From IMG/VR virus record IMGVR_UViG_3300024346_000017, positions 32,001 to 96,000 of that record: a stretch of 64,000 nucleotides of DNA; one strand, 5' to 3'. Below the pieces are notes generated by a model that had not been told where the DNA came from, did no database searches, and was given only the letters and a program-made list of their open reading frames with translations. This document shows, one piece after another, positions 11,321-29,411 of this stretch. The translations under genes were made by a program, and so were the position numbers. This DNA is from a virus. How positions within the stretch are numbered: the stretch's first letter is position 1; each line of letters opens with the position of its first letter.

Positions 11321-11322
11321 TC

Positions 11323-11781
11323 ATGTCTAGACAAATGCTAGTCCCACTAAGACTTCTAGCTTTGTCAACAGACCCAGTTTTTGGACAAGTTGGCGAAATT
11401 TATATAAACACAGTAACTAAAAATTTACGTGTTCATAATGGAACTACTTGGATAGAGCTTACCCCACCAAGTACAGACCCAACACCATTTTATATGCACA
11501 CCCACACATTTGATGGAGATGTACATACAATTGATATACAAAATCAAATTGATTTTAAATCATTATCTAATCCAAATACACCAGGCAAAGTATTGCCAGA
11601 GATTATAGGTTATGACGGTGGAAATCCTTCAGATAATCTAGCAACACCGTCATTTGTAGAAGAAAGTTTATTTGACGCTGGTTTATTTGATGGCACACAA
11701 GAAGAAACAACAGAAACAGGAACAGGTGGCGGAGGTTCCGAAGATTTCGAAGCACCATCACTTGATGGAGGAGGCTCATAA
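11323..11781 (+). CDS. fibre-associated structural protein
   Basis: GEIYINT...W motif, DGG motifs; operon context. Confidence 0.55.
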   Translation: MSRQMLVPLRLLALSTDPVFGQVGEIYINTVTKNLRVHNGTTWIELTPPSTDPTPFYMHTHTFDGDVHTIDIQNQIDFKSLSNPNTPGKVLPEIIGYDGGNPSDNLATPSFVEESLFDAGLFDGTQEETTETGTGGGGSEDFEAPSLDGGGS

Positions 11782-13427: not shown

Positions 13428-13436
13428 GGAGACCAA

Positions 13437-15821
13437 ATGCCGCTAAATATTTTTGACGGTTCCAGCTGGAATCCTTTAAAAAAAGTACAGATTCATGATG
13501 GTACATCCTGGAATGAATCAAAAGCGGCATATATATGGGACGGATCAGAATGGAAATCACTTCTCGATTTAAAACCAAAAAACACTGAGTTACCAGCTTT
13601 ATCTTTACAAGAAGGAGTTTATCTTTATGCTGCCCAAGAAACAGTTTCTGTTTCTAATGGAATATGGGAAAACTCTCCAACATCATTTAAGTATCAATGG
13701 CAAAAATCCCCATTTAGCTCATCTAGTTACAACTGGTCTGATATAACAGGCAAGACATCAAATACCTTGCTTTTAGATGAAGACGAATGGAGCTCATCAA
13801 GAAACCTTAAATATGTTGGATATGTAGTAAGGTGTAAGGTAACTGCTACAAATGCTGCTGGAGATAATGATCCTGCAGTCTACACTATTCCTAGCCCAAT
13901 AATAGCTCCACAAAAACTTTCCGTTTTATCCGCTTCGGTTATTTCAAACGGAGTAGTAAAAATTGATTGGCAAAAGCCTATTGGAGCAAATGATTTTTAT
14001 ATACAGTATCAAGGACCAGAAGTTGCTTTTACAGAAACACAATCGCTTGGAGATGTTGATACTTTAACAATAGATACTGGAAGTTCTGGTGGAACTCTTG
14101 GAATCTTAATAAATCCAAAAAATAATTCAAACGCATCTGGAATGGCTCTTACTGGGCTTGGCAAAAATGCATCAATTAGTGATCTAAAACCAAATAAGCC
14201 TTACGTTACAACAACTATGGAATCATTCTCATGGGGAGGAAGGTTAAGATGGACCAACACTTTAATAAATCAAACATCGTGGGTAATATATAACAATGGG
14301 CAACTATACGCAAGTTCGTTTTTAAATGATCCGTCCGCTACCTCATTTGATATAGATAGGTTTGGAGAAGGAGGCTCAACCTTCGGATCATTTACAATTA
14401 CGGTTACTGGAACAGCTCCAAGATTTACAGAAACATCCTGGCCTTCAACACCACCGCTTTCTATAGTATATCCCGCAGTTCCTTTGCCAGTTAATCAAGT
14501 AGCTCCTACAGTATCTACTTCAAATGGAAGAGTATTTGCCTCAACTACTGGAACATGGTCAAACACATCTTCTATATATAGCTATCTTTATGAATGGTTT
14601 GCTAATGGTTCTCCAATAGACAGTGCATTTATTACTGAGTCAGATACTATAAATCTTTATGACACCACACAGTATGATAATATGTCAATAACTTCTGCTG
14701 TATATGTTTTAACAACAGACTTAAGAACAACTTCAGCAACAGCAAGCAGTAACTCTGCCCAATCAAATCCAGTTCCTCCCACAACATATACAATTCCAAA
14801 TTTGATTGGAACATATAATCCCTCTGATACAACTAACTATAATATTTCAAATGGCTCAACACTTGGCACTACTGATTATACAAAAGAGGGACAAGTTTAC
14901 ATGCAGTCTCCAGGAGCTGGTGCATCTGTAAGCACATCTCCAAAACCAACAATTACTGTATACAGATACGTTTACGAAGCTGCTCCTCAATACACTTATT
15001 ATGCAGGATATTCTGCATGTAATAACAATAATGGTGCCCCTTATATCCAAGAGCCATCTGTTAGCGGTCCGTATACAGGATCATCAATACCACAAGATAT
15101 TTCTACGGGCCCAAGCACATACAGAGAAGTTATTAGATACAGGACAACATCCGCAGCAGCTTTATCCGCAGCAGCACAAGCAGGATGTGAAACACCAGTC
15201 TTTGCACCACCAGCTTTTGCACCAGCACAATTTACAATTCCAAATTTAGTTGGATCATATAATCCTTCTAGTACATCAAGCTACAATATTTCAGTAGGTG
15301 CAGTAACTTCAACTGCAGACTATACAAAAGAGGGAATTGTTGCATCTCAATCTCCTACAGGAGGAACATCTGTAAATGCTTCTCCTATTCCTACAATTAC
15401 TGTATCAAAGTATTCTTATGTAGCTCCGCCGCCTGAACCAACTGTAACTTATTATCAGGGGTATTCTGCTTGCAATAACTTCTCTGGAGTTTATGCCTCT
15501 GCTCCATCTGTTAGTGGTCCATATACAGCATCATCAATGCCAACAGATGTTATTACTGGGCCAAGCTCAAACAGAGAAGTTCTTAAGTATAGATCAACAT
15601 CTGAAGCAGCTTTATCCGCAGCAGCACAAGCAGGATGTGAAACACCTTCCTTCGCACCACCAGTCTTCTTCGCACCACCAGTCTTCTTCGCACCACCAGT
15701 CTTCTTCGCACCACCAGTCTTCTTCGCACCACCAGTCTTCTTCGCACCACCAGTCTTCTTCGCACCACCAGTCTTCTTCGCACCACCAACATTTGGTTCT
15801 CGTTTCATAAGATCATATTGA
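13437..15821 (+). CDS. surface/virion protein: Ig-like domains, two PASTA-like repeats, C-terminal (FFAPPV)n and GSRFIRSY tag
   Basis: GIWENSPTSFKYQWQ...VTATNAAG Ig-like; TIPNL(I/V)G...QSP.(A/G)G.SV...TITV twice; C-terminal tandem repeat. Confidence 0.75.
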   Translation: MPLNIFDGSSWNPLKKVQIHDGTSWNESKAAYIWDGSEWKSLLDLKPKNTELPALSLQEGVYLYAAQETVSVSNGIWENSPTSFKYQWQKSPFSSSSYNWSDITGKTSNTLLLDEDEWSSSRNLKYVGYVVRCKVTATNAAGDNDPAVYTIPSPIIAPQKLSVLSASVISNGVVKIDWQKPIGANDFYIQYQGPEVAFTETQSLGDVDTLTIDTGSSGGTLGILINPKNNSNASGMALTGLGKNASISDLKPNKPYVTTTMESFSWGGRLRWTNTLINQTSWVIYNNGQLYASSFLNDPSATSFDIDRFGEGGSTFGSFTITVTGTAPRFTETSWPSTPPLSIVYPAVPLPVNQVAPTVSTSNGRVFASTTGTWSNTSSIYSYLYEWFANGSPIDSAFITESDTINLYDTTQYDNMSITSAVYVLTTDLRTTSATASSNSAQSNPVPPTTYTIPNLIGTYNPSDTTNYNISNGSTLGTTDYTKEGQVYMQSPGAGASVSTSPKPTITVYRYVYEAAPQYTYYAGYSACNNNNGAPYIQEPSVSGPYTGSSIPQDISTGPSTYREVIRYRTTSAAALSAAAQAGCETPVFAPPAFAPAQFTIPNLVGSYNPSSTSSYNISVGAVTSTADYTKEGIVASQSPTGGTSVNASPIPTITVSKYSYVAPPPEPTVTYYQGYSACNNFSGVYASAPSVSGPYTASSMPTDVITGPSSNREVLKYRSTSEAALSAAAQAGCETPSFAPPVFFAPPVFFAPPVFFAPPVFFAPPVFFAPPVFFAPPVFFAPPTFGSRFIRSY
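15651..15788 (+). repeat. perfect 18-bp coding tandem repeat (TTCGCACCACCAGTCTTC) x7 plus partial
   Basis: Seen directly; encodes FAPPVF units. Confidence 0.95.
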
Positions 15822-15831
15822 TGTATAATAT

Positions 15832-16029
15832 ATGAAAGAGACAAAACCATGGGACCTTTTAAATCCAAGCACTGAATTTGCTTCAGAATCTGTTCAAGAA
15901 GAAAGATATGTAATATGTCAAGCATGTCCAGAATTTATCGGATTGACTAAGCAATGCAGAAAATGCGGATGTTTAATGAAGTTAAAAACAAAAATTTTAG
16001 CATCAGAATGCCCATTACAAAAATGGTAA
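15832..16029 (+). CDS. small Cys-rich protein (DUF6171-like)
   Basis: R..ICxxC...CxxCGC...K......CPxxKW. Confidence 0.65.
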   Translation: MKETKPWDLLNPSTEFASESVQEERYVICQACPEFIGLTKQCRKCGCLMKLKTKILASECPLQKW

Positions 16030-16100
16030 ATTAGGATGGTTTATAAAGTTTTATAAGATATAATTAACTAAGTAACACGATTCACACAAGGGGGTAGCCA

Positions 16101-16658
16101 ATGGCCACCAGTTATCCAAATGCAATAGATCAACTTATTAATCCAAGCGGATCAGATGCATTATCAGCACCATCACATTCAGAACAGCATTCAAATGCAA
16201 ATGATGCAATAGAAGCATTACAAACAAAAGTTGGAACAGACGGATCTACAGATACAAATTCTATAACATATAAAATAAACGACATAGTTTCTATATTGGG
16301 AGATCTAGACAATAGCACAGACGCCGTCGTAGAACTTCTGGGACTAGAAGGCAACAATGATCTTTCTGTTTATGGAATTGAAAATCCAACTAACGTAGAC
16401 TCATTTGCAAAAGCTACTTGGAGAACAGTCAATTATAATCTTCAGGTAACAAAGGGAACAGATGTCTACACATCAGAAATCCTCGCTTCACATGATGGAA
16501 CAAACATAATGGTTTCAGAGTCAAACATCATCTCAAACTCAAACACAAGTCTATTTACTTATACCTTTGAAGAAAACTCAGGTATAATTAGTTTAAGAAT
16601 CACCCCTGTTTCTGGTTCTATTTCAGTTAGATTTTCAAGAACAGCGCTTAAAGCATAA
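16101..16658 (+). CDS. virion structural protein
   Basis: MATSYP..D...H..NDAIEALQTKVG N-terminus typical of fibre-module proteins. Confidence 0.6.
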   Translation: MATSYPNAIDQLINPSGSDALSAPSHSEQHSNANDAIEALQTKVGTDGSTDTNSITYKINDIVSILGDLDNSTDAVVELLGLEGNNDLSVYGIENPTNVDSFAKATWRTVNYNLQVTKGTDVYTSEILASHDGTNIMVSESNIISNSNTSLFTYTFEENSGIISLRITPVSGSISVRFSRTALKA

Positions 16659-16687
16659 CAAAAAAAGCAGTAAGAGGAGTCATATAA

Positions 16688-18250
16688 ATGGCAACAGTAA
16701 CAAAAAACTTTAGAATTAAATCTGGCCTCATTGTTGAAGGTACTTCGGGTACGATCAATGGCCAAAACATCCTTACAGAAACAGGTGGAGATAGTTATAT
16801 TCTCAATCTTGTTGGTGGCGCTACTCTTGTAAAATCAGTAGAAGCAACCCAACTTGAAGTAAGCGGAGCTGGAAAACTATCCGTAAAATCTGGCGTATTT
16901 GATGCAGCAGGTGCAGCAGCAGCAGCACAGTCTGCAGCAGAAGCAACTGCATCAGCAGATGCAAGCGCAAAAGCTAGCGCAGCACAATCAGCCGCAACAA
17001 CTGCAGCAGCAACTGACGCTACTACAAAGGTAGCCGCAGAAGCAGCCCTAAGAGTATCAGGCGATGCAGCTTCAGTTTCAACTGCAGCAGCTGACGCAAC
17101 ATCAAAGGCAGCAACTGCTAAGTCAGAAGCAATTTCTGCAGCAGCAACAGATGCAACAGACAAGGTAGCTGCAGAAGCTGCCCTCAGAGTATCAGGCGAC
17201 GCAGCTTCAGTTTCAACTGCAGCAGCTGACGCAACATCAAAGGCTAATGCAGCGCAAACAGCCGCTATCTCTGCAGCAGCAGCAGATGCTACTACAAAGG
17301 CAGACGCAGCAAAGGCTGGAGCAGAAGCAACAGCAGCAGCAGCACTAACATCTGCAATCTCAACAGAGGTTTCAAACCGTAATACAGCAATTGGAGCAGC
17401 AGTAGATTCATTAGTAGACGGTGCACCAGCACTTCTTAATACATTAAATGAATTGGCAGCAGCAATCAATGATGATGCTAACTACACAACAACACTAACA
17501 TCAGCACTTGCTCTCAAAGCTAACTCAGCAGATGTTACAACAGCAATTGCAACCGCTAAATCAGAATCAGCTACAGATGCAACAGACAAGGTAGCCGCAG
17601 AAGCAGCCCTAAGAGTATCAGGCGATGCAGCTTCAGTTTCAACTGCAGCAGCAGATGCAACATCTAAGGCTAACGCAGCTCAAGCAGCAGCTATTGCAGC
17701 AGCAGAAACTGACGCTACAACCAAAGCAGGCGCAGCTCAAGCAGCAGCTATTGCAGCAGCAGCAACTGACGCTACAACCAAAGCAGGCGCAGCTCAAGCA
17801 GCAGCTATTGCAGCAGCAGCAACTGACGCTACTACAAAGGCTAACGCAGCTCAAGCAGCAGCGGAAGCAACTGCAGCAGCAGCCAATACAGCACAGCAAG
17901 CTGGAACAACATCTTTCACAGCATTAAATGTTAACGACCAGGCTAAGCAAATTGCAGCCTCATCAACATCACTTGGATCAGTTATAGTAACTGCTTATGA
18001 GTGGCCAAAGGCAGACTACCGTTCAGGTAAGTTCCTTGTTAAGATTGATAATGCAACACACAATGAAATATCAGAAATTCTAGTAACACTAGACTCATCA
18101 GACAACGTAGCAATTACAGAATATGCAATTGTCGGAACTAATGGATCAAGAGGAACTATTACAGCAGATGTATCAGGATCAAATGTAAGAATAAGAGTAA
18201 ATCCAGTAAATGATTCAACAATCAAAGTATCTGGAACACTTGTTAAATAA
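16688..18250 (+). CDS. Ala-rich coiled-coil fibre protein
   Basis: ADATxKA repeats; GAPALLNTLNELAAAINDD module; strong RBS. Confidence 0.75.
   Translation: MATVTKNFRIKSGLIVEGTSGTINGQNILTETGGDSYILNLVGGATLVKSVEATQLEVSGAGKLSVKSGVFDAAGAAAAAQSAAEATASADASAKASAAQSAATTAAATDATTKVAAEAALRVSGDAASVSTAAADATSKAATAKSEAISAAATDATDKVAAEAALRVSGDAASVSTAAADATSKANAAQTAAISAAAADATTKADAAKAGAEATAAAALTSAISTEVSNRNTAIGAAVDSLVDGAPALLNTLNELAAAINDDANYTTTLTSALALKANSADVTTAIATAKSESATDATDKVAAEAALRVSGDAASVSTAAADATSKANAAQAAAIAAAETDATTKAGAAQAAAIAAAATDATTKAGAAQAAAIAAAATDATTKANAAQAAAEATAAAANTAQQAGTTSFTALNVNDQAKQIAASSTSLGSVIVTAYEWPKADYRSGKFLVKIDNATHNEISEILVTLDSSDNVAITEYAIVGTNGSRGTITADVSGSNVRIRVNPVNDSTIKVSGTLVK
17027..17860 (+). repeat. 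coding direct repeats in Ala-rich fibre gene
   Basis: ~80-bp block (KVAAEAALRVSGDAASVSTAAADATSKA) at ~17027, ~17162, ~17588; 60-bp tandem unit x3 at ~17676-17860. Confidence 0.85.
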
Positions 18251-18264
18251 TTAAATAAAGGTTT

Positions 18265-18289
18265 TGGGGGATTCCTTAAAAATCCCCCA
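18265..18289. terminator. intergenic stem-loop without a clear U-tract
   Basis: TGGGGGATT-ccttaaa-AATCCCCCA. Confidence 0.45.
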
Positions 18290-18320
18290 CAATAAACAAT
18301 TAGGGGATATGTGAACTTAA

Positions 18321-18683
18321 ATGGCAACAGTAGATAAGAACTTTAAAGTAAAGAATGGGTTAAATGTAGCAGGAACTGCAACGTTTGATTCTAATATCGT
18401 ATTAGGAACAGCCCCAATATCTTTTGATACAACAACAAAAAGGCTACAAGTCCAGATTGATGGATCTTGGCAGCCTATAGCTTTGTATTCAGAAATTCCA
18501 AATGAAAACACTATGCTTTCATTTATGGATGTAGGTTTGGCGATTGATTACAATGGCCAGCCAACATATATTATTCAGGCAAATGGAGTTACACCATCAG
18601 GAACAAGCAAGTATGTTTCTGGAGGAGACGCTTCAACTACTGAGTTTGGAATGACCTTTGATTCAGGAGCATTAGTAGCATGA
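18321..18683 (+). CDS. small structural protein; N-terminus related to 16688..18250
   Basis: MATVDKNFKVKNGL vs MATVTKNFRIKSGL. Confidence 0.65.
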   Translation: MATVDKNFKVKNGLNVAGTATFDSNIVLGTAPISFDTTTKRLQVQIDGSWQPIALYSEIPNENTMLSFMDVGLAIDYNGQPTYIIQANGVTPSGTSKYVSGGDASTTEFGMTFDSGALVA

Positions 18684-18744
18684 TGCTTAATTGTAATGGT
18701 TTAAATGCTATAATTTCAATATATCAAATAAAAGGGGTGGCATA

Positions 18745-21225
18745 ATGTCAACAGTAAGAATTCAAGTACGTAGAGGTTTAGCTTCAGAATGGACCGCAGC
18801 AAATCCAGTATTGGCTGCAGGTGAAATGGGTGTTGAAACAAACACTAATTTATTTAAGTTTGGTAACGGGTCTTCTACATGGACTGCCCTTGCATATGCC
18901 AACAACTCAGATGTAGCAATTGGTGAAATTTCCCAAGACGCTATCAACACAGCCCTTACAATGGGTGCAGGTTTAACAAAGACTTATAACGATGGAGCAA
19001 ATACAATAACTATAACTGTTGATACAGATGTAGTTTCAACAAGAGCATTTGCTACAACAGCAGCAGGGACTGCACAGACTGCAGCAGAAGCAACCGCAGC
19101 AGCAGATGCAAGCACAAAGGCTTCAGCAGCACAAGCTGCAGCAATTGCAGCAGCTTCAGCAGATGCAAGCGCAAAGGCTTCAGCAACTCTTGCTTCAGCA
19201 ACCGCAGCAGCAGCAGCATATACAGACTCTGCAGTAAATGGAGTAAATAACTCTCTTTCAGATTACCTAGAGGTAACAGAAAGAGGAGCAATGAATGGAG
19301 TTGCTTCCCTAGACGCAAATGTCAAGGTTCCACAAGCACAGCTTCCTTTAAATACTTTAACAACAAATATTAATACATCAGGAACAGTATCTGCAGCAAC
19401 AGTAATGGCAGAAGATGTAACTTCAAGCGGTGTAGTAACAGCAAACAATGTAACTATTAGTGGAAACCTAACTGTAAATGGAACAACCACATCAGTAAAT
19501 TCAACAAGCGTTACAATTGATGACCCAATGATTTATATTGGCGATGGCAATCAGTCAAACTCACTTGACCTTGGAGTTGTAGCAGCATTTAATGATGGCA
19601 CATACCAGCATGCAGGTCTTGTTCGTGATGCTTCAGATCAAGGAATCTGGAAACTATTCTCAGGAGTAACATCAGAGCCTGGCACAACAGTAGATTTCAC
19701 TACATATACAAAAGATAAGCTAGAACTAGGAACTTTGTATGCAGATGCAGCAAGAATTGGATCAGTTACAAATCTAGAAATTCAGCACCTAGGAGGAGTT
19801 ACTTCACCAATCCAGGCACAGCTTAATACCAAATTGGCTAGCGTACCTGATGATTCTGTTGGAACAGCTAAGATTCAAGCAGCTTCAGTAACTACTGCAA
19901 AAATTGCAGATGGTGCAATTGATACATCTAAAATTGCAGATGTTGCAGTAAGTACTGCAAAAATTGCAGATGGTGCAATTTTAACTGCAAAGCTTGCAGA
20001 TGCTTCTGTAACTTCAGCAAAAATTCCAGCAAACACAATTTCTCAATCACATCTAAATGATGACGCAGTAGGAACTGCAGAAATTGTTGCACTTGCAGTA
20101 ACTACCGAAAAGATTGCAGATGCTGCAGTAAGTACTGCAAAAATTGCAAATTCAGCAGTTACTACTTTAAAAATTGAAGATCTAGCAATCACAAATGAAA
20201 AGATTGCAACAGCAGCAGGAATAGCTCAGTCAAAGATTTCTGGATTAACTGAAGCCCTAGCTACAAAAGCAACAATTGATTCACCAACATTTACTGGTGC
20301 AGTTGTTCTTCCAGCAACAACAACAATCGGTCTAGTTGATGCAACTGAAATGGGATACTTAAATGGTGTTACATCTTCACTTCAAACACAGCTAACAGCC
20401 CTTGGAACAGCAGATTCAACACACGCAGCATTAACTGAAAATGTTCACGGCATTGCAAATACTGCAGCACTTGCAACAATGGCTTACGCTGATACAGCAG
20501 AAGCAGACGCAATTACAGCAGCAGGTACAGCAGCAGATTCAAAGATTGCAACTGCAGTAGCAGCACTTACAAAGTCTTCAGTAGGACTTGCAAATGTTGA
20601 TAATACAGCAGATGCATCAAAGCCAGTCTCTACAGCACAGGCTTCAGCAATCGCAACTGCTAAGTCAGAAGCAATTGCAGATGCAACTTCACAAGTAAAT
20701 GCATTACTAACAGGAGCTCCAGCAGCACTCAATACACTTGATGAGCTTGCAGCAGCACTCGGAGATGATGCAAACTTTGCAAGCACAGTTACTACTAGCT
20801 TAGCAGCTAAAGCACCAATTGCTTCACCAACATTTACTGGAACAGTAACAGTTGCAGCAGCAGGAGTAGCGTTTGCAGATAAGACTCAGACAAAGGCAGG
20901 CGTACCTTCTCTCACATCAATTGCCACAGCAGTTTCAGCAAGCACAACACTAGATGCGCTTGGAACAGATGCAGCAGTAAGAGATTCACTAGTTCCTCTA
21001 TCAGGAGCAGTAAACGTCAGCTTTGAAGCAACAGGAAATGCAAAGTATGAAATCGGTTCTTCAATCAGCTTCTACCAGTCAGCAGGAACTGGTGCTAATA
21101 TAACTGGATCTGGAGTTACAATTCTTGCGACACCAGGTGCAACATTAAGAACAACAAGTTCATCAGTAACAGCCACTAAGGTTGCAGCAACAACATGGTT
21201 GTTAGCTGGAGACCTAAGAGCATAA
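18745..21225 (+). CDS. tail fibre protein with Mtd-N-like N-terminus and decapeptide repeats
   Basis: IQVRRG...NPVLAAGEMGVET; AVSTAKIADG-type repeats; VGLANVDNTAD; GAPAALNTLDELAAALGDD; C-terminal WLLAGDL. Confidence 0.8.
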   Translation: MSTVRIQVRRGLASEWTAANPVLAAGEMGVETNTNLFKFGNGSSTWTALAYANNSDVAIGEISQDAINTALTMGAGLTKTYNDGANTITITVDTDVVSTRAFATTAAGTAQTAAEATAAADASTKASAAQAAAIAAASADASAKASATLASATAAAAAYTDSAVNGVNNSLSDYLEVTERGAMNGVASLDANVKVPQAQLPLNTLTTNINTSGTVSAATVMAEDVTSSGVVTANNVTISGNLTVNGTTTSVNSTSVTIDDPMIYIGDGNQSNSLDLGVVAAFNDGTYQHAGLVRDASDQGIWKLFSGVTSEPGTTVDFTTYTKDKLELGTLYADAARIGSVTNLEIQHLGGVTSPIQAQLNTKLASVPDDSVGTAKIQAASVTTAKIADGAIDTSKIADVAVSTAKIADGAILTAKLADASVTSAKIPANTISQSHLNDDAVGTAEIVALAVTTEKIADAAVSTAKIANSAVTTLKIEDLAITNEKIATAAGIAQSKISGLTEALATKATIDSPTFTGAVVLPATTTIGLVDATEMGYLNGVTSSLQTQLTALGTADSTHAALTENVHGIANTAALATMAYADTAEADAITAAGTAADSKIATAVAALTKSSVGLANVDNTADASKPVSTAQASAIATAKSEAIADATSQVNALLTGAPAALNTLDELAAALGDDANFASTVTTSLAAKAPIASPTFTGTVTVAAAGVAFADKTQTKAGVPSLTSIATAVSASTTLDALGTDAAVRDSLVPLSGAVNVSFEATGNAKYEIGSSISFYQSAGTGANITGSGVTILATPGATLRTTSSSVTATKVAATTWLLAGDLRA

Positions 21226-21245
21226 TTGGAAAATAGGAGAATAAA

Positions 21246-22079
21246 ATGTCAAAAAATATAGGTAATAAAGCCGCCGCACAAGACAACTTCATTGGACCAA
21301 ATGCTCCAACTGGCTTAACTGCAACAAATGTTGGAGCTAACAGAGCATTTAACGATGGGCGTATTGATCTAGCATGGGTTGCACCAACTGGAGCAAATAC
21401 TCCAACATCATATAAGATTATGCGTGGTGGAGCAGAAATTGCAACAGTTTCTCACCCTACAGTAACTTATTCAAATACTGGACTAACATCAGCCACACTT
21501 TACTCTTATACAGTAAGAGCAGCAGATGCTTATGGAACTTCAGCCGATTCAAACGCTGCAACAGCAACAGCAACAACAGTTCCTTCTGCTCCAACAAGTG
21601 CATCTGCAACAGCAGGAGTTAATGCAAACACAGTTCAGTGGGCAGCGCCAGCAACTGGTGGAACTGCAATCACAAACTACTATGTTGTTGGAAATGATGC
21701 AACAACTGGAAATACTACTGGTTTATCTGTATCAATTGCAGATTCTGCAAATACATCTCAATACTATAACGTATATGCAGACAATGCTAATGGAAGATCA
21801 GCTGCATCAAATAACACTAATACTGTTACTACACTTGCACCTACTTTCTTCGCACCACCGTTTTTCCCACCATTCTTTCCACCAAGCTTCTTCGCCCCAC
21901 CAGGGTTCTTTGCCCCACCAAGCTTCTTTGCACCGCCAGTGTTCTTTGCCCCACCAGGGTTCTTTGCACCGCCAGTGTTCTTTGCCCCACCAGGGTTCTT
22001 TGCACCGCCAGTGTTCTTTGCGCCACCAAGCTTCTTTGCGCCACCAACATTTGGCTCACGTTTTATCAGATCGTATTAA
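21246..22079 (+). CDS. fibronectin type III protein with C-terminal (FFAPPx)n repeats and GSRFIRSY tag
   Basis: PNAPTGL...W.AP...Y...YSYTVRA and PSAPTS...WAAPATGG...Y FN3 signatures; Phe/Pro tail. Confidence 0.8.
   Translation: MSKNIGNKAAAQDNFIGPNAPTGLTATNVGANRAFNDGRIDLAWVAPTGANTPTSYKIMRGGAEIATVSHPTVTYSNTGLTSATLYSYTVRAADAYGTSADSNAATATATTVPSAPTSASATAGVNANTVQWAAPATGGTAITNYYVVGNDATTGNTTGLSVSIADSANTSQYYNVYADNANGRSAASNNTNTVTTLAPTFFAPPFFPPFFPPSFFAPPGFFAPPSFFAPPVFFAPPGFFAPPVFFAPPGFFAPPVFFAPPSFFAPPTFGSRFIRSY
21846..22046 (+). repeat. degenerate 18-bp (36-bp higher-order) coding repeat
   Basis: TTCTTTGC(A/C/G)CC(A/G)CCA units encoding FFAPP(G/S/V). Confidence 0.9.
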
Positions 22080-22090
22080 TAATATACAAA

Positions 22091-22120
22091 ACAATAGCAA
22101 GGGGCAACCCTTGCTATTGT
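22091..22120 (+). terminator. stem-loop terminator
   Basis: ACAATAGCAAGGG-GCAA-CCCTTGCTATTGT, 13-bp perfect stem. Confidence 0.7.
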
Positions 22121-22151
22121 GCTATATAAATATAAATGATACAATTTGTAT

Positions 22152-22856
22152 ATGACAAATATAAATGAATCTTTTAGCTTTTCTTCTAAAGAACAGCTTT
22201 TCCCAGGCGTATGGGTTTACAGAAATGTAATTAAGAACGACCTTGATATTATTAATAGGCTCAATGAAATTGGCGAATCTGCCATAAGCGAGAACGATAC
22301 AAGATACGCATGGACGTTTGGCTTTGTTGGGTATAGCGAAAAAAGACCATCATACAGAGACTGTGAAGACATTAAAGTCGGAGAAATTAAAAACCCTAGA
22401 TCTAAAACAGAGCAATTAGTTTCTAGTTTGTGGACAGATTTAAAAAAATCACAGTCCCCAGCTGTTGAAGACTATTGCGGAATGTATAATGTAAAAATGG
22501 ATTACTGGGAAGTAATGAACTGCATCAAATATGGAAAGGGACAACATTTCCAAGAGCATGCAGACCATGGGTTCTCTTATAGCGCTACAGTTTCATTAGT
22601 TGCATACGTAAACGACGACTATGAAGGCGGAAACTTATATTTCCCTAAGCTTAATCTAGATATTAAGCCAAAAGCTGGAGACCTATATATATTCCCATCA
22701 ACATATTTATTTTCACACAGGGCAATGCCAGTTGATTCTGGAATGAAGGTTTCAATTGTAACTATGCTAGATTATAATGATCATGCTCATAGACAAGAGT
22801 TTATGCAGATGAGAGCTAACTGGTTAGAGCAAGACGCACAAGCTGGCAAGAACTAA
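22152..22856 (+). CDS. 2OG-Fe(II) oxygenase, prolyl hydroxylase-like
   Basis: HAD...NDDYEGG...KPKAGD..IFPS...HRA...K; ATG 6 nt after TGATACAAT. Confidence 0.88.
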   Translation: MTNINESFSFSSKEQLFPGVWVYRNVIKNDLDIINRLNEIGESAISENDTRYAWTFGFVGYSEKRPSYRDCEDIKVGEIKNPRSKTEQLVSSLWTDLKKSQSPAVEDYCGMYNVKMDYWEVMNCIKYGKGQHFQEHADHGFSYSATVSLVAYVNDDYEGGNLYFPKLNLDIKPKAGDLYIFPSTYLFSHRAMPVDSGMKVSIVTMLDYNDHAHRQEFMQMRANWLEQDAQAGKN

Positions 22857-22857
22857 A

Positions 22858-23580
22858 ATGTATAATATAGAGGCATACTTTGTTAGAGAAGGGTTTGGCC
22901 AAGTTAGCCCTCTATCAGTAAAGAGAGACTGGATGGATCAAACATTTGACGCACATGCCTATAAGTGTTTCCCAGTCAGCCTAACTAATCAATTGGGTTG
23001 GGGTATATCTTTTCCAGAAGACATATCATTTATTTGGGATGGAATTACAGATAGCAGTCCAGATCATGTAAAAATATTGTCTGGAGAAAAATATGCATAT
23101 GCTGGTAGAGCAAATGCAACAATCAGCTTTAATACTGGAATAATGTTTAAGACTGACGAAAACTCAACTTTAATGTCTATGCCTGTACCCAATCTTTTTA
23201 TTGATGGCGCAACCCCTTTTACTACATTAATCAGTACATCTTTTTATAGAGGAGAGCTACCAGCAGCCTGGATGATAACAAAAGCAAATGAAGTTATAAC
23301 CATTAAAGCTGGAACCCCAGTAATATCAGTAATGCCAATAAATTTAGATTCAATTAATAACTCAGAGATGCAGTTTAAAGAATTATCATCTCTCCCAGAG
23401 CCTTTGTTTGACTCTACAGAATATTCTAATGTTATATATGACTTAAATAGAACCGCAACATGGTCCAATTTTTATAGAGATGCAGTAGATCATTTAAAGA
23501 GAAAAATTGGATCTCACCAAGTAAAGGCAATAAGACTAAAAACAAATAATGATATAATGAATAAAGGAGGAAGCAAATGA
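22858..23580 (+). CDS. DUF6065-like protein
   Basis: RDWMD...HAYKCFPVSLTNQLGW motif; recognised from memory. Confidence 0.6.
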   Translation: MYNIEAYFVREGFGQVSPLSVKRDWMDQTFDAHAYKCFPVSLTNQLGWGISFPEDISFIWDGITDSSPDHVKILSGEKYAYAGRANATISFNTGIMFKTDENSTLMSMPVPNLFIDGATPFTTLISTSFYRGELPAAWMITKANEVITIKAGTPVISVMPINLDSINNSEMQFKELSSLPEPLFDSTEYSNVIYDLNRTATWSNFYRDAVDHLKRKIGSHQVKAIRLKTNNDIMNKGGSK

Positions 23581-24251
23581 AACCATCAAACGACTGGGGC
23601 AATAATGCTCCTATATCTATAACCCCCTCTGGCTTTTTTGGAAACTCTTCTTCCAATATTATAGAAATTAAAGACTTCCTTTCTTTGGCGGAAAGAGAAA
23701 GACTTATGGACTTTGCTTTAAACAATAAAATTTGGGATATAACAGAAACTCATCGTGATGCAGACGGACTAGTTTTATATGATCATAAAATTTGGGAAGA
23801 CAGAGTATGTACTTATAACTCTCTTATGGCATCCGATCCAGGCATACTTGAGCTTATCTACAGTATGATCGATAGATTAAAAATAGAAGTAGATGCATTT
23901 TTTAGTGTAGATGCAAAAGAAACTGGTCCAGCAATTGTTCGTTGGCCTGTTGGCGCAAGACAAGAACCCCATGCAGATAAAGAATTTCATGCTGGTCCAG
24001 AAAAAGGAAGGGCTAACGATTTCCCATGGTATGATTTAGCTGGATTATTTTATTTTAACGATGACTATGAAGGAGGAGAACTTTATTTCCCTCAGCATGG
24101 CATTGAGTTTAAACCAGTTGCAGGAGCAGCATATTTTTTCCCAGGCGATATGAATTATACGCATGGAGTCCGCCCAGTAAAGTCTGGGAATAGGTTTACA
24201 TCACCATTTTTTTGGACTATAAAAAAACATACAGGAGAAAAACAGCCATGA
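23577..24251 (+). CDS. 2OG-Fe(II) oxygenase, prolyl hydroxylase-like
   Basis: HAD...NDDYEGGELYF...HGV...R. Confidence 0.88.
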   Translation: MKPSNDWGNNAPISITPSGFFGNSSSNIIEIKDFLSLAERERLMDFALNNKIWDITETHRDADGLVLYDHKIWEDRVCTYNSLMASDPGILELIYSMIDRLKIEVDAFFSVDAKETGPAIVRWPVGARQEPHADKEFHAGPEKGRANDFPWYDLAGLFYFNDDYEGGELYFPQHGIEFKPVAGAAYFFPGDMNYTHGVRPVKSGNRFTSPFFWTIKKHTGEKQP

Positions 24252-25066
24252 GTAAATTAGAATATGTAGAGCTTTATCCAAAAGTAGATATCTATAGAAA
24301 TGTTTTAAAAGACCCAAACCAGCTATATGCAGTAATGAATGAATCTGAAAAGACATCAGAAGGAAAGTACTTTTTAAAAACATGGGATCCGTGGGCGCAC
24401 TTTGGAACATACACACAAAAAAAGGACCCAAGAGAAGTTTCTGCTGAAATTCAAAAAGAAGAGATGTTTATTAAAGAAAAACAATTTGTTGAAGAAGTTG
24501 AAGAAGCTTACAACAAGGTTGTATTAGATTATGTAGAAAGACACGGCATTGATTTGCCAGACGGATGGCATTTTAGTGGTTGCTCCTATTCAAAATATCA
24601 CGCAAACATTGATACGCTAAATAATAGCATGACAATGCAATATCATACAGACCATATAACCTCTCAAAAAGATATGCCTGGAGATAAGTTTTCTATAACA
24701 TGTACCATGTACATTAATGATGATTATGAAGGCGGAGACATTGAGTTTTATGTTGATGGAAATCTTATTAATCACAAGCCTCAAGCAGGAGACATTTTGG
24801 TTTTTCCATCTACAGAGCCATATTTTCATGGAGTAAAAACAATTAACACTAATGAAAAATTCTTTGTCAGAAACTTTATTATGACTCCACACAATGGCAC
24901 AGAAGAATGGCTTGCGAATCAAAGAAAATTTGGTGCTTACAGATGGGCAAAAATGGAACAAGAAAGAATAGACCACGACGATAAAAGAAATATGGTTTAT
25001 TTTGCAGACGGCAAGCCTATATCATACGAAGACTATATGAGCACAAACAAGGGCAAAGGTAAATAA
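24248..25066 (+). CDS. 2OG-Fe(II) oxygenase, prolyl hydroxylase-like
   Basis: HTD...NDDYEGG...FPS...HGV...K; start revised to ATGA overlap at 24248. Confidence 0.88.
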   Translation: MSKLEYVELYPKVDIYRNVLKDPNQLYAVMNESEKTSEGKYFLKTWDPWAHFGTYTQKKDPREVSAEIQKEEMFIKEKQFVEEVEEAYNKVVLDYVERHGIDLPDGWHFSGCSYSKYHANIDTLNNSMTMQYHTDHITSQKDMPGDKFSITCTMYINDDYEGGDIEFYVDGNLINHKPQAGDILVFPSTEPYFHGVKTINTNEKFFVRNFIMTPHNGTEEWLANQRKFGAYRWAKMEQERIDHDDKRNMVYFADGKPISYEDYMSTNKGKGK

Positions 25067-25067
25067 C

Positions 25068-25820
25068 ATGGAAAGAAATATGATTATAACTAGACACAAG
25101 CCAGATATCGTACAGTATGATAATTTTTTAACTCCAGATGAGTGTAAATCTATCATAGATGTTTTGGCCATCAAAATGGAAAAGGATCAACTTAGATGGA
25201 TGCCAATTTCATTTTATGAATCATATTCATCTGGAACCCCAGAGCTAAATGATCCAGATACAATTGCTTCTGGTCTTCCAGGAGATTTTTTTCAAGACTT
25301 AAGACAGAGAGTTATAAACGCAACTGCAGATATGGCTGGTAAATCTCCAGAACAAATGTCTCAAATAAGCTGGCACTCTCAAAGATGGGCACCAGGAGCA
25401 TTTGCAAATATGCATTCTGATAACACATCTAATGATGGTGTATCTGGTGCATTTACTAGAAGCAGATATGCAACATTCCTTTATTTAAATGACGACTTTG
25501 AAGATGGTGTTTTAAACTTTAAACATGGGCTTACAATTGTTCCTAAGACGGGAACCCTTGTAACTTTTGCTGGAGGATTTGATAACATGCATGAGGTTAC
25601 AACTGTCAAAAAGTCTATTCGATATACCCTTGGTTCATTTTGGGACGATAGAGAAGAAAGCGATTATCCGCAAGAAGTAAGAGATGCTTGGGCGGAAGAG
25701 CTTGCAAAAGTCAGAGCAATTCAAAAAGATGAGGCAGCAGAATGGGAAGATTATAGAAAAAGAGGAGTAAGAATAACTCCACGAGGAGAACAATACCCAG
25801 CTTCTGAAGTGGAAGGCTAA
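25068..25820 (+). CDS. 2OG-Fe(II) oxygenase, prolyl hydroxylase-like
   Basis: DNFLTPDEC; HSD...YLNDDFEDG...HEV...RY. Confidence 0.88.
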   Translation: MERNMIITRHKPDIVQYDNFLTPDECKSIIDVLAIKMEKDQLRWMPISFYESYSSGTPELNDPDTIASGLPGDFFQDLRQRVINATADMAGKSPEQMSQISWHSQRWAPGAFANMHSDNTSNDGVSGAFTRSRYATFLYLNDDFEDGVLNFKHGLTIVPKTGTLVTFAGGFDNMHEVTTVKKSIRYTLGSFWDDREESDYPQEVRDAWAEELAKVRAIQKDEAAEWEDYRKRGVRITPRGEQYPASEVEG

Positions 25821-25821
25821 T

Positions 25822-26472
25822 ATGCAAAACGATGTTGATTTTAAACAATTTACAATGTTTAACGTACACGCACTAGACCCAAATATTTGGTATTGGGAAA
25901 ATGTTCTTAGCTATCCAAAAGAATTAAATAGCTTTATAGAAGAAATAGATTCTATTCCAGAATCATATTCAAGAATTTCAAAATGGGAAAACTGGTCTGC
26001 AAGTAATGATGAGTCTTTAATTTATGGCGCAACAAAAAATATATTTAGATCTAAGCTAAAAGAAACTACTGGCTCTGACGCAGTTGATAAAAAAACATTG
26101 TACATTGCAAACAGCTTTATCATGGCAGCTGAAATGTGCTCAGATAGGTATTTTGCGAGTCACGGATTAGATAAAAATAATTACAATTTAGAAATAAATC
26201 AAATTCCAATTAAAAAATGGAATCAAGGACAATCAATGGGCCCACACTTTGATGGTCAAGATGGAAATAAAGACTTAGCCTTCTCTCTTGTAACTTATAT
26301 AAATGACGACTACGAAGGTGGAGAAATTCATTTTCCAAATCAAAATGTTACGTTAAAGCCAGCAGCTGGAAGCTTAATAATGTTTCCATCTCAAGAGCCA
26401 TATATCCACGAAGTAAAACCTATTATTTCTGGAACAAGATACATGAGTCCAGCACACGTATATATTAAATAG
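25822..26472 (+). CDS. 2OG-Fe(II) oxygenase, prolyl hydroxylase-like
   Basis: HFD...NDDYEGGEI...FPS...HEV...RY. Confidence 0.88.
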   Translation: MQNDVDFKQFTMFNVHALDPNIWYWENVLSYPKELNSFIEEIDSIPESYSRISKWENWSASNDESLIYGATKNIFRSKLKETTGSDAVDKKTLYIANSFIMAAEMCSDRYFASHGLDKNNYNLEINQIPIKKWNQGQSMGPHFDGQDGNKDLAFSLVTYINDDYEGGEIHFPNQNVTLKPAAGSLIMFPSQEPYIHEVKPIISGTRYMSPAHVYIK

Positions 26473-26492
26473 ATAGGTGGTATAATAAAAAA

Positions 26493-27605
26493 ATGAGCAC
26501 AACAGGCAAGGGCTTTAGATACCCAGTATACACAGACACCCCAGACGTACCCAGAGACCTCGGATACCTTGCTGCTGACGTAGATGCCTACCTAGATGCT
26601 CATCCAGGCCCACAAGGGCCTTCAGGAACCCTATCAGTAGGCTCTGTAACTACAGTTAGCGCTTCTACTCCAGCATCTGTTGTTAATGTTGGAACAGCAT
26701 CAGCAGCTATATTAAATCTAACTTTACCAAGAGGTATTGATGGAATTATTGGTGGTCCAGGCCCTTCTAATGTATTAAGCATTGGAACAGTAGAGCAAGG
26801 CGGATCTGCCTCAGCAACAATTACTGGCACATCACCAACACAGACATTAAATTTAGTTTTGCCACAAGGGCCCGCTGGCCCAACTGGACCGCAGGGGCCG
26901 CAGGGCCCAACTACTTTAGCAGTAGGAACTACCACCACTAGTTTGCCTGGAACAAATGCATCAGTAACAAATACTGGAACTTCAACAGCAGCAGTATTTG
27001 CATTTACAATTCCAAGAGGCGCAACTGGAGCAACTGGAGCAACAGGCCCGCAAGGAATTCCTGGATCAAGCGCAACAATAGATCCAGTACCAACTACAAT
27101 ATCTTTAAATATCCCAACTACGGCAGGGTATGGAGTAAATTCAAACTGGTACCCACTTGCAAATAATTTATACTCTATTGGACAACCAATCGATGCTCCA
27201 TCAGGAGTAACTTCAAATAGATTTTGGAAAACAATATATTCTAATACTGGAACAATAAATACATCTGATCAAAGATTAAAAACAGATGTTATTAATTCTG
27301 CTCTAGGACTTGATTTTATAAATAATTTAAATCCAGTAAGCTATAAGTTTATTGAAGGCGGAAAAGAAGTCGTTGATGGAGATTTAGTTTCTATACCTGG
27401 ATCAAGAACGCATTACGGACTTATTGCACAAGAAGTAAAAGAGGTTTTAGATGCATCTGGCGTAGAAGATTTTGCTGGATGGGTTAAGATGGATGTATCA
27501 CAAGAAGATTCTATGCAAGGCCTAAGATACGATCAATTCATTGCACCACTTATTAAAGCAGTACAAGAGCTTACAGCGAGAGTTAAAGCCCTAGAAGAGA
27601 TTTAA
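26493..27605 (+). CDS. collagen-like tail fibre with C-terminal intramolecular chaperone (peptidase S74-like)
   Basis: Short Gly-X-Y runs (GPAGPTGPQGPQGP; GATGATGATGPQGIPG); TSDQRLK...YGLIAQEV...coiled coil. Confidence 0.85.
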   Translation: MSTTGKGFRYPVYTDTPDVPRDLGYLAADVDAYLDAHPGPQGPSGTLSVGSVTTVSASTPASVVNVGTASAAILNLTLPRGIDGIIGGPGPSNVLSIGTVEQGGSASATITGTSPTQTLNLVLPQGPAGPTGPQGPQGPTTLAVGTTTTSLPGTNASVTNTGTSTAAVFAFTIPRGATGATGATGPQGIPGSSATIDPVPTTISLNIPTTAGYGVNSNWYPLANNLYSIGQPIDAPSGVTSNRFWKTIYSNTGTINTSDQRLKTDVINSALGLDFINNLNPVSYKFIEGGKEVVDGDLVSIPGSRTHYGLIAQEVKEVLDASGVEDFAGWVKMDVSQEDSMQGLRYDQFIAPLIKAVQELTARVKALEEI

Positions 27606-27608
27606 GAC

Positions 27609-29411
27609 ATGTCATATAAATATACTGTCTTAAAAGATAACCCAGTTGCATTTTTCTTATTGGATGAAGTTCGTTCTGGCGAAGCTGGTGTATACAGTAA
27701 TTTAACTACATTATATCCAACATATCAAGCTTTAAAAGATAACGGTGTTTCATATGCCGCAGTAAGCGGGCTGCCAATAATTGATTACACTGGAAACTCC
27801 ATGGAGGGGTATGCAATTAATACTTCAGCCATGGAAGTTCTTCCTATTATTGGGGCGGGGGTAAGAGGAACAGAGATAAATGAAGATGCACAGATAAGCC
27901 TAAAAGCCCTAGGACTTGGTATGAATAGAAATCCAGACGGTCCATTCGCATTTGAAATATGGTTTAGTCCAGCTAAAGATGACAACTCAGAATATCTTAT
28001 TATGGGAGATGCAGAAAATTCAATTGGCCTATTCTATAAAAATGAAAACATTATTTTTAAATGTAGTCCAACACAGATGGTTTGGCATAAGATTACAAAA
28101 AATAAAGCCATGCATGTTGTAGGTATGTTTTCTAAAGATACAATTTCACTTTATGTTGATGGCAAAATTGTTTCTGAAAGTCCAGTTGCCGATAGCTTTA
28201 AATTTAATAATACAAGCTTAAACCTATCCTTGGGACCAGCCAACGCAGGCAAAAAATTTATTGTTGATTCAGCAGCAATTTATGCCTATGAGCTAGAAGA
28301 AGCAAAAATATTAAATCATTATCTGTCTGGATACAAAGAGACAAAGTACTCACAAATTGTTTATTCAAATAATGGAATTCTTTTTTCATTAAACTCGGCC
28401 TCAGTAAGACCAGACATTTCATATAGGTATCCTGGAATAAAAGCACTAGAAGAGCTTGCCTCTGGAGATGCCTATTATAATTCAGAGTATAGCAGAATTG
28501 AGTTTGAAGAAACAGATGCCGTGGAAACAAAAACATTTTCTTTTCAAGAAAGATTGTATGTATCAAATCCAGAAGATATTGTTTCTTCTAGAATTTGCTA
28601 TGGGCAGGATGTAGACAATATTGTGGTTGAAATACAAATCCCAAATCAGCCATGGGTAGTTTGCAAAAATAATTCTCCAATGCCATACTACAACAAAAAC
28701 CAGAACTCAGGAAGCCCAATATTAGATATAAGGGTAACAATGACGACACAGGATTCATCCTTCGACCTACCTTACTTTGATAAGCTAGAAATTGATATGT
28801 ATTCAAATAAAGATTTTTATGCAGATAATTCTGGATCAAAAATATACTCAGCATACGACTATGAAGTAGGACAATATAATTACCCAGTAAGAATGCAAAA
28901 TAAATACAACGGACTTTCAATGTATTCTGGCCATGGGTTTTCTGTAGATCTTTCTATTCAGCCAAGAACAATAGAGATGTTTTTTACTCCAAGGGGTGGA
29001 CAAAATGTATTATTTTCTTCAGCATCCTCATCAATTAAATGGGCGGCAAACGGAGTAATAACAAAAGCTGGCATTTCTGCTATATACGTAAATGGTATAA
29101 ATAGGACATCAGAGACTAATGTATCCACATTCTTGCTAAATGATGTTGCCCACCATATTGTAATTGTATTAAGTCAGTCAGCCCTAAATATTAAGTTTAA
29201 TCAAAATCAATTAGATACGGAGTATGGAACTTCAAATCTATACAATAATATAGCTTTTTATGAGAAGGCATTTACCTCCGCAGAAGCAATAAATAACTAC
29301 AGGCTCTACTGCTCAGATAACTCAAAGGTTGTTACTGACCCAGGAGTGACTATATCTGAAAGTGCCCAAGGTCAGGACGGAACCTCATACTTCATAAGGT
29401 TATTTGACTAG
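27609..29411 (+). CDS. structural protein with LamG/ConA-like domain
   Basis: FAFEIW...HVVG...LYVDGK...AIY pattern; VLKDNPVAF N-terminus. Confidence 0.65.
   Translation: MSYKYTVLKDNPVAFFLLDEVRSGEAGVYSNLTTLYPTYQALKDNGVSYAAVSGLPIIDYTGNSMEGYAINTSAMEVLPIIGAGVRGTEINEDAQISLKALGLGMNRNPDGPFAFEIWFSPAKDDNSEYLIMGDAENSIGLFYKNENIIFKCSPTQMVWHKITKNKAMHVVGMFSKDTISLYVDGKIVSESPVADSFKFNNTSLNLSLGPANAGKKFIVDSAAIYAYELEEAKILNHYLSGYKETKYSQIVYSNNGILFSLNSASVRPDISYRYPGIKALEELASGDAYYNSEYSRIEFEETDAVETKTFSFQERLYVSNPEDIVSSRICYGQDVDNIVVEIQIPNQPWVVCKNNSPMPYYNKNQNSGSPILDIRVTMTTQDSSFDLPYFDKLEIDMYSNKDFYADNSGSKIYSAYDYEVGQYNYPVRMQNKYNGLSMYSGHGFSVDLSIQPRTIEMFFTPRGGQNVLFSSASSSIKWAANGVITKAGISAIYVNGINRTSETNVSTFLLNDVAHHIVIVLSQSALNIKFNQNQLDTEYGTSNLYNNIAFYEKAFTSAEAINNYRLYCSDNSKVVTDPGVTISESAQGQDGTSYFIRLFD

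Follow-up and report, generated by a model that had tools for sequence, protein, structure and literature searches.

Phe/Pro-repeat proteins and an adjacent oxygenase unit

The DNA analyzed here is a 64,000-nucleotide stretch (the window), bases 32001-96000 of the 113,108-bp IMG/VR record IMGVR_UViG_3300024346_000017, which CheckV rates as complete. It contains two genes whose products end in Phe/Pro-rich hexapeptide repeats and, directly after the second of these, a six-gene unit encoding five predicted 2-oxoglutarate (2OG)/Fe(II)-dependent oxygenases and a DUF6065 protein. The first repeat gene (13437-15821, + strand) encodes a 794-residue fiber-region protein that ends in (FFAPPV)7-FFAPPTFGSRFIRSY and has two internal repeats of ~160 residues, each followed by FAPP-type sequence. 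The second (21246-22079, +) encodes a 277-residue protein with an FN3 domain (Pfam fn3, E = 2.3e-7) and a tail of 11 FF(A/P)PPx units followed by TFGSRFIRSY. The original prediction had noted an FN3 protein with an (FFAPPx)n end and a second, upstream protein with the same kind of tail, and the open reading frames (ORFs) bear this out: after their FFAPPx repeats, both run to an identical FGSRFIRSY and a stop codon, with 9-10 residues following the last repeat. Among the credible genes of the 113-kb genome, only these two and a collagen-like fiber gene have Pro-rich products, which makes these three the candidate substrates.

The repetitive nature of the tails is also apparent in the DNA. Tandem Repeats Finder reports a perfect 18-bp array of 7.7 copies (100% matches) at 15650-15788 (+), encoding the FFAPPV repeat of the 794-residue protein, and a second array of 9.3 copies with an 18-bp (or 36-bp) unit at 21879-22046 (+), in which the units of the FN3 tail have diverged at synonymous positions. 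The identity of the 7.7 units suggests that the first array expanded recently and that its length probably varies by slippage. Over their final 10 codons, the two genes show five synonymous and no nonsynonymous site differences, so the terminal peptide itself is under selection. The residue after Pro-Pro varies as well: several units of the FN3 tail read Pro-Pro-Gly and relatives mostly carry FF[AS]PPG; the 794-residue tail is Pro-Pro-Val throughout and therefore lacks a collagen-type X-Pro-Gly site.

The enzyme unit spans 22152-26472 on the + strand, with the composition originally described. The first gene, ox1 (22152-22856; PF13640, E = 4.5e-13), is followed by the DUF6065 gene (22858-23580; PF19541, E = 1.6e-28, 100 bits), ox2 (23577-24251), ox3 (24248-25066, its start set at the ATG that overlaps the ox2 stop codon), ox4 (25068-25820), and ox5 (25822-26472). 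All five oxygenases match PF13640 (2OG-FeII_Oxy_3) with 33-50 bits, above the cut-off of 27. Directly after the unit, again as predicted, lies the gene for the collagen-like fiber (26493-27605, +), which has two Gly-X-Y runs of 5-6 triplets and a Peptidase_S74 chaperone end. Directly 3′ of the 794-residue gene, a 65-codon ORF (15832-16029, +) encodes a Cys-rich DUF6171 zinc ribbon (Pfam E = 7.9e-7; the score of 29.8 bits exceeds the cut-off of 27) that is present as a single copy in the genome. A literature search on DUF6171 and DUF6065 found no paper.

One feature of the unit did not hold up. It had been assigned its own -10 element after a terminator, and a hairpin with a 13-bp stem does lie between the FN3 gene and ox1 (22091-22120). 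This hairpin has no T-run after it on the + strand, and promoter-like sites in the region are not in excess over shuffled sequence (23 found, 22.6 expected), so we rejected it as a clear terminator plus promoter.

Enzyme families and predicted folds

To characterize the oxygenases, we aligned ox1-ox5 with eight other paralogs from the same genome (one of the 13 lies outside the genome's list of 12 PF13640 matches). The His-x-Asp...His iron triad (H136, D138, and H189) is invariant across the alignment, in line with the intact triads first reported, and a basic residue (Arg/Lys) for the C5 carboxylate of 2OG aligns ~10 residues past the distal histidine. A profile search with the paralogs matched the prolyl 4-hydroxylase (P4H) of B. 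anthracis (E = 2e-12), human prolyl 3-hydroxylase 1 (6e-12), and the P4H of the chlorovirus PBCV-1 (1.5e-10), with PKHD-type hydroxylases also matched within E = 2e-12 to 1e-10. No nucleic-acid oxygenase ranks above the prolyl hydroxylases in this search, a Tet-like enzyme appearing only at 4e-7.

The AlphaFold model of ox1, the sole oxygenase modeled, has a pLDDT (predicted local distance difference test) score of 87, and protein prolyl hydroxylases account for every one of its 50 best Foldseek matches (CrP4H, PHD2, vCPH, PPHD, and BaP4H; E = 4e-11 to 3e-9). The elongation factor Tu (EF-Tu) hydroxylases 4iw3 and 5v7y are also among its structural neighbors. Sequence profile and modeled fold agree on the enzyme type that had been proposed, supporting assignment of the block enzymes to the prolyl-hydroxylase type, with hydroxylation of peptidyl proline as the predicted activity. 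Co-folding of ox1 with residues 215-277 of the FN3 protein gave a score of 0.01, a value that counts neither for nor against binding.

The DUF6065 protein belongs to a different fold. Its model (pLDDT 88.8) displays a dUTPase-like β fold and no metal triad, and on these grounds we rejected the idea that it might be a sixth oxygenase. Foldseek pairs the model with a dUTPase at E = 8e-5 and a TM score of 0.67 (target-normalized), and VIA-align yields Z scores of 8.5-11 for the 13 best chains, 12 of which are dUTPases, as against Z ~4 for unrelated chains. We do not class the protein as a dUTPase, however, because the dUTPase profile PF00692 matches nothing in the genome at E 0.01 and because the residues invariant in the DUF6065 alignment (W25, Cys37, and Arg84, among others) do not make up the five dUTPase motifs.

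DUF6065 clusters in the protein atlas are mostly viral, and when bacterial and archaeal genomes were scanned with the alignment of the family, only three short contigs of metagenome-assembled genomes turned up, which resemble phage DNA. A word-index search for homologs returned close family members only. The genome itself encodes further copies, the second scoring 64 bits and the third 16 bits, under the cut-off. One possible role for DUF6065 and DUF6171 is that of accessory proteins binding a cofactor or the repeat.

Gene linkage and tail ends among related phages

A check put forward with the original prediction was whether repeats and enzymes co-occur across related phages. The FN3-repeat protein has 224 relatives in IMG/VR, of which we fetched 80, and a blind IMG/VR scan for DNA encoding FFAPPxFFAPP contributed 114 further loci, the two sets together comprising 149 unique repeat proteins. 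FxPP units are kept in all 80 fetched FN3-type relatives, with 8-20 in each, and wherever downstream DNA is present, the gene order is FN3-repeat, ox1, DUF6065, ox2, ox3/ox4, ox5, and this holds at identities as low as 45%. Among the oxygenases of the block, ox2 is the best conserved, with 72-91% identity across relatives. An oxygenase or DUF6065 gene occurs within 1 kb of 87 of the 103 repeat proteins, FN3-type or other, that have enough flanking sequence. For the FN3-type proteins, such a gene lies no more than 1 kb downstream in 61 and no more than 8 kb downstream in 14 more; for other architectures, it lies within 1 kb in 26 of 28. The 794-type gene, too, is closely followed by an oxygenase gene in several relatives. 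The linkage is thus kept over many contigs and in several gene layouts.

A second group of contigs (L106, L110, L134, L149, L151, L111, and L124) has a different gene order and a shorter repeat protein of 124-150 residues that ends in FK. Here, the repeat gene is flanked by a divergently oriented ox2 ortholog, an ox1 ortholog, and DUF6065. In a tree constructed with MAFFT and FastTree, the enzymes of this group fall inside the ox1 (support 0.998) and ox2 (0.977) clades, apart from the other paralogs of the genome. We take ox1 and ox2 as the core oxygenases, ox1 standing beside repeats in both contig groups. The oxygenase neighborhood of the second group also includes an AurF-like di-iron N-oxygenase (E = 4.7e-7; L110:9367-10476, +).

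In relatives, genes for enzymes that might decorate hydroxyl groups also lie beside the repeats. A PF11397 glycosyltransferase, of what we take to be the family of Gnt1 (CAZy GT60), is encoded directly 3′ of the repeat gene in L095 (E = 4.8e-20), L072 (6.3e-42), and L064 (1.1e-15), whose repeat proteins represent three different architectures. In ~20 loci, namely L040 (11278-11985) and ~19 similar ones, a Sulfotransfer_2-like gene of 235 codons (E = 3.6e-7) is found between the FN3-repeat gene and ox1. In other relatives, the slot after the repeat gene is filled by genes of 179 and 140 codons, for which Pfam gave no match. The DUF6171 ORF is matched in 48 related loci, mostly just 3′ of the 794-type gene, and in L072 (4461-5645), it is fused to the PF11397 glycosyltransferase.

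The sequences that follow the repeat are far less constant than the enzymes. Across relatives, the tails end in FGSRFIRSY, FGSRFIRAY, FGGGGLRFY, FK, a Cys-rich segment, or a Hint-like or Peptidase_S74 domain, while the enzyme block persists. A Hint/intein-like domain of ~160-190 residues follows the repeat in 56 of the 80 FN3-type and 10 of the 23 794-type relatives (e.g., L022:10805-11278, L047:10805-11314, and L040:10769-11275) and was found in neither repeat protein of the window. This domain begins with C[LI]xxD or SVGxxTL, which place a Cys or Ser nucleophile at its start, and often ends in HN, and its profile matches a bacterial intein-like (BIL) domain (Protein Data Bank (PDB) 2lwy) at E = 1.2e-6. 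The 794-type homologs have short, Hint-like, or Cys-rich ends. Fusion of the repeat to Peptidase_S74 in L095 (9631-10284, -) and to a Cys-rich C-terminal piece in L111 (1069-1380, +) indicates that end domains of several kinds can be joined to the repeat module. Any one phage has a single end type, its two repeat proteins carrying like ends, so the end evidently matters, though the enzymes persist whatever it is. Hint (BIL) and Peptidase_S74 are both known as self-removing C-terminal domains; they are present in relatives, and the window proteins carry neither. That both remove themselves points to the repeat as the C-terminal stalk of the mature protein, which would be fibrous and possibly trimeric.

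These ends also bear on two ideas contained in the original prediction, namely that the identical 15-residue end is a tag recruiting the enzymes, or that the tail is released in modified form, in the manner of a ribosomally synthesized and post-translationally modified peptide (RiPP). Either would be in keeping with the identity of the two ends, whose DNA differs only synonymously, with selection on that peptide, and with the like ends of both proteins within one phage. The last residues differ from relative to relative (FGSRFIRSY, FGGGGLRFY, FK), however, or give way to Hint-like, S74, or Cys-rich domains with the enzymes still in place, which speaks against a directing tag. As for an excised peptide, no protease, leader, or export gene was found in the unit, the carriers are multidomain proteins of 277 and 794 residues, and the self-cleaving domains seen in relatives would cut off only themselves and leave the repeat in place. 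We consider recruitment by a terminal tag or RiPP-like processing very improbable.

The collagen-like fiber, the other partner initially proposed, fares little better. A reading in which the enzymes modify other fibers of the block (the collagen-like S74 fiber, the Ala-rich fibers, or the laminin-G protein) accords with the position of the oxygenase genes among fiber genes, an arrangement shared by the dioxygenase array of the Synechococcus cyanophage Syn9, which likewise comes after fiber genes. It also accords with the prediction of Iyer, Abhiman, de Souza, and Aravind in 2010 that certain bacterial hydroxylase-sulfotransferase operons act on collagen-like or tail-collar proteins (PMC2938197). 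Those operons resemble the present loci in that a fibrous repeat protein would be hydroxylated and the hydroxyl then decorated; they differ in using β-hydroxylase or PhyH-family enzymes and Gly-rich substrates, and they are predictions too. Many relatives with the complete oxygenase block, however, do not have the collagen-like fiber. The prolines of this fiber occupy the X position of Gly-X-Y (Gly-Pro-Y only), not X-Pro-Gly, so it has no Pro-Gly sites; the gene always beside ox1 is the repeat gene. We rejected the fiber as an obligate partner because it is dispensable in so many relatives and lacks Pro-Gly sites, and modification of any of these fibers in place of the repeats seems improbable to us. 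What stands of the original proposal is the enzyme type and the linkage to the repeats, joined now by the hydroxyl-decorating enzymes encoded beside them in relatives; the tag, the RiPP, and the collagen partner are not supported.

Proposed substrate, precedents, and genome setting

Because the pairing recurs in other gene layouts, the repeats are probably the substrate of these phage oxygenases. We lean toward the explanation that the block oxygenases (ox1 and ox2 with DUF6065, plus ox3-ox5) hydroxylate prolines of the Phe/Pro repeats. The locus would then be a virion-protein tailoring module, in which two proteins of the fiber block carry a C-terminal Phe-Phe-x-Pro-Pro-x stalk whose prolines would be hydroxylated by the adjacent 2OG/Fe(II) oxygenases late in infection, at the expense of O2 and 2-oxoglutarate. 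The core set would consist of ox1, ox2, and the DUF6065 partner, with ox3-ox5 as further paralogs, and several regiospecificities could be represented, for instance C4 and C3 on the Pro-Pro pair; that each paralog has its own target residue, as first proposed, is conjecture. Glycosylation or sulfation of the newly formed hydroxyls would probably follow in some relatives.

More tentatively, and with less confidence than in proline hydroxylation itself, we can imagine the stalk maturing into a densely hydroxylated polymer containing 4-hydroxyproline, 3-hydroxyproline, dihydroxyproline, and perhaps modified phenylalanine, which in some phages would be sulfated or glycosylated with N-acetylglucosamine (GlcNAc), and in which DUF6065 and DUF6171 would serve as substrate-handling subunits. 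Such a polymer would be a bacteriophage counterpart of the hydroxyproline-rich glycoproteins of plants or the adhesive proteins of mussels, and it would supply a function for the dioxygenase arrays of phages, which have lacked an explanation since 2010.

Both viral P4H enzymes accompanied by virus-encoded Pro-rich repeats and phage dioxygenase arrays are already known. The former occur in PBCV-1, whose vCPH (PDB 5c5t) ranks among the leading hits of both the profile and the structure searches; PMC7019647 refers to Eriksson et al. 1999 for its P4H and Pro-rich repeats. PBCV-1 resembles the phage in coding for a small enzyme of the P4H type together with repeat proteins rich in proline. It differs in having one enzyme, repeats of the (PAPK)n type, a eukaryotic host, and no adjacency of the genes, whereas the bacteriophage locus combines at least five divergent paralogs and DUF6065 with a Phe-Phe-x-Pro-Pro-x unit in tight linkage.

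The array of Syn9 was described by Iyer et al. as dioxygenases accompanied by a dUTPase-fold cysteine protein and was read as a pathway of secondary-metabolite biosynthesis (PMC2938197). That description agrees with DUF6065 and its invariant Cys37, and Syn9 gp43 aligns with the DUF6065 profile in hhalign at E = 1.6e-4 with a probability of 50%. The Syn9 array (gp41-gp54; L201, 1069-23145) directly follows the putative fiber genes gp32-gp39, whose products are Gly-rich, not Pro-rich, and it includes tryptophan halogenases and a JmjC protein in addition. No substrate was identified for it by Iyer et al. in 2010; here, a candidate protein substrate is encoded next door to the enzymes.

A parallel for the decoration step is offered by the Skp1 pathway of Dictyostelium and Toxoplasma, in which the prolyl hydroxylase PhyA must act before Gnt1 can transfer GlcNAc to the hydroxyproline of Skp1 (PMC6939170). 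The likeness lies in a P4H-type enzyme followed by a PF11397-family transferase, which three of the related phages place after the repeat gene. The Skp1 pathway differs in that it modifies a single proline of a cytoplasmic regulator, and the genome of this phage has no transferase of that family.

Several observations weigh against hydroxylation of the repeats. Most of the linked loci belong to one phage family, so independent linkage events are few; they may perhaps be reduced to three to five layouts, and much of the synteny could be due to shared descent. The second contig group, the 794-type gene followed by an oxygenase, the slot filled by PF11397 or sulfotransferase genes, and the DUF6171 ORF go beyond simple descent. 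The Pro-Pro-Val tail of the 794-residue protein is missing the X-Pro-Gly site, a search of this phage's own genome returned no PF11397 glycosyltransferase, and DUF6065, with its dUTPase-like fold, would be no less suited to nucleotide chemistry than to any other role. The genome carries at least 12 genes matching PF13640 and three for DUF6065, mostly far from any repeat (at least seven and two, respectively, lie outside the six-gene unit), and they include two groups of oxygenase and DUF6065 genes with no repeat nearby. As regards the precedents, we found no Pro/Phe-rich repeat near the Syn9 array, and no hydroxyproline was found in the virions of the closest precedent, PBCV-1 (PMC7019647). 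In addition, a 2OG oxygenase has been detected in the virion proteome of a cyanomyovirus (PMC12801897), making delivery to, and action on, host targets conceivable.

Many of these points would equally be explained if the enzymes and DUF6065 act on other substrates, such as host proteins (EF-Tu or ribosomal proteins, for example), small-molecule or peptide secondary metabolites, or nucleotides, and the adjacency to the repeats is inherited gene order. The paralogs and the three DUF6065 genes are spread over early, structural, and replication regions, a comparable array in Syn9 was interpreted as secondary metabolism and has no Pro-rich repeats, and, besides the EF-Tu hydroxylases that neighbor ox1 in structure, bacterial P4H/PPHD and Ofd1-type enzymes act on proteins such as EF-Tu or ribosomal proteins. 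Inherited gene order does not readily accommodate the second contig group, however, where ox1 and ox2 orthologs specifically adjoin FxPP-repeat genes in a different order and with a different repeat protein, nor the insertion of the PF11397 glycosyltransferase and sulfotransferase-like genes right at the repeat gene in relatives, and DUF6065 has no match to the dUTPase profile. On balance, we regard action on other substrates as the main alternative, though a rather unlikely one.

Hydroxylation of the stalk, if confirmed, would be a hydroxyproline-based modification of a bacteriophage structural protein. It would also yield several divergent prolyl hydroxylases directed at a defined hexapeptide, as well as a lead on what DUF6065 and DUF6171 do. 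The large families of 2OG/Fe(II) oxygenases in aquatic phages are as a rule filed under "auxiliary metabolic genes," with no role assigned. Lake viromes are rich in this family, with 224 relatives of the repeat protein and ~2000 of DUF6065.

The virus is a freshwater actinobacterial siphovirus. An actinobacterial phage is indicated by a genome-encoded WhiB and by a portal protein 57% identical to the portals of Streptomyces phages such as BillNye, and the window contains siphovirus-like genes for the portal (29832), a protease (31433), the major capsid protein (32818), and a 3020-residue tape measure protein (38735). Since the fiber, repeat, and oxygenase block lies upstream of the portal gene and not after the tape measure gene, its fibers may be head or neck fibers rather than tail fibers. 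In BillNye (L200), the interval from ribonucleotide reductase to portal holds only an endolysin gene, one 810-codon gene, and one small gene; the same interval here (window 10121-29411) comprises ~19 kb of fiber, repeat, and oxygenase genes. BillNye, one of the nearest relatives in GenBank, lacks PF13640 genes altogether, and searches of GenBank phages by megablast with 21246-27605 and by tblastn with the FN3-repeat protein and DUF6065 gave no match. The components of the system are therefore also missing jointly, which speaks for their linkage.

The remaining oxygenase genes lie well away from the block. Upstream of the window, at 10.5-19.3 kb of the genome (L081:525-9322), an Asp/Asn β-hydroxylase fused to PF13640 is accompanied by five more PF13640 genes and a weak DUF6065 match; genes for AhpC, an AhpD-like CMD protein, and glutathione peroxidase are interspersed among them in this early region. 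Downstream of the window, at 97.5-100.5 kb (L082:1500-4515), RecA is followed by a PF13640 oxygenase and the third DUF6065 gene, and in cyanomyoviruses, too, a 2OG oxygenase stands beside a UvsX or RecA-like gene. Within the window, a further PF13640 paralog with an intact triad is encoded at 4367-5215 on the - strand, far from the block.

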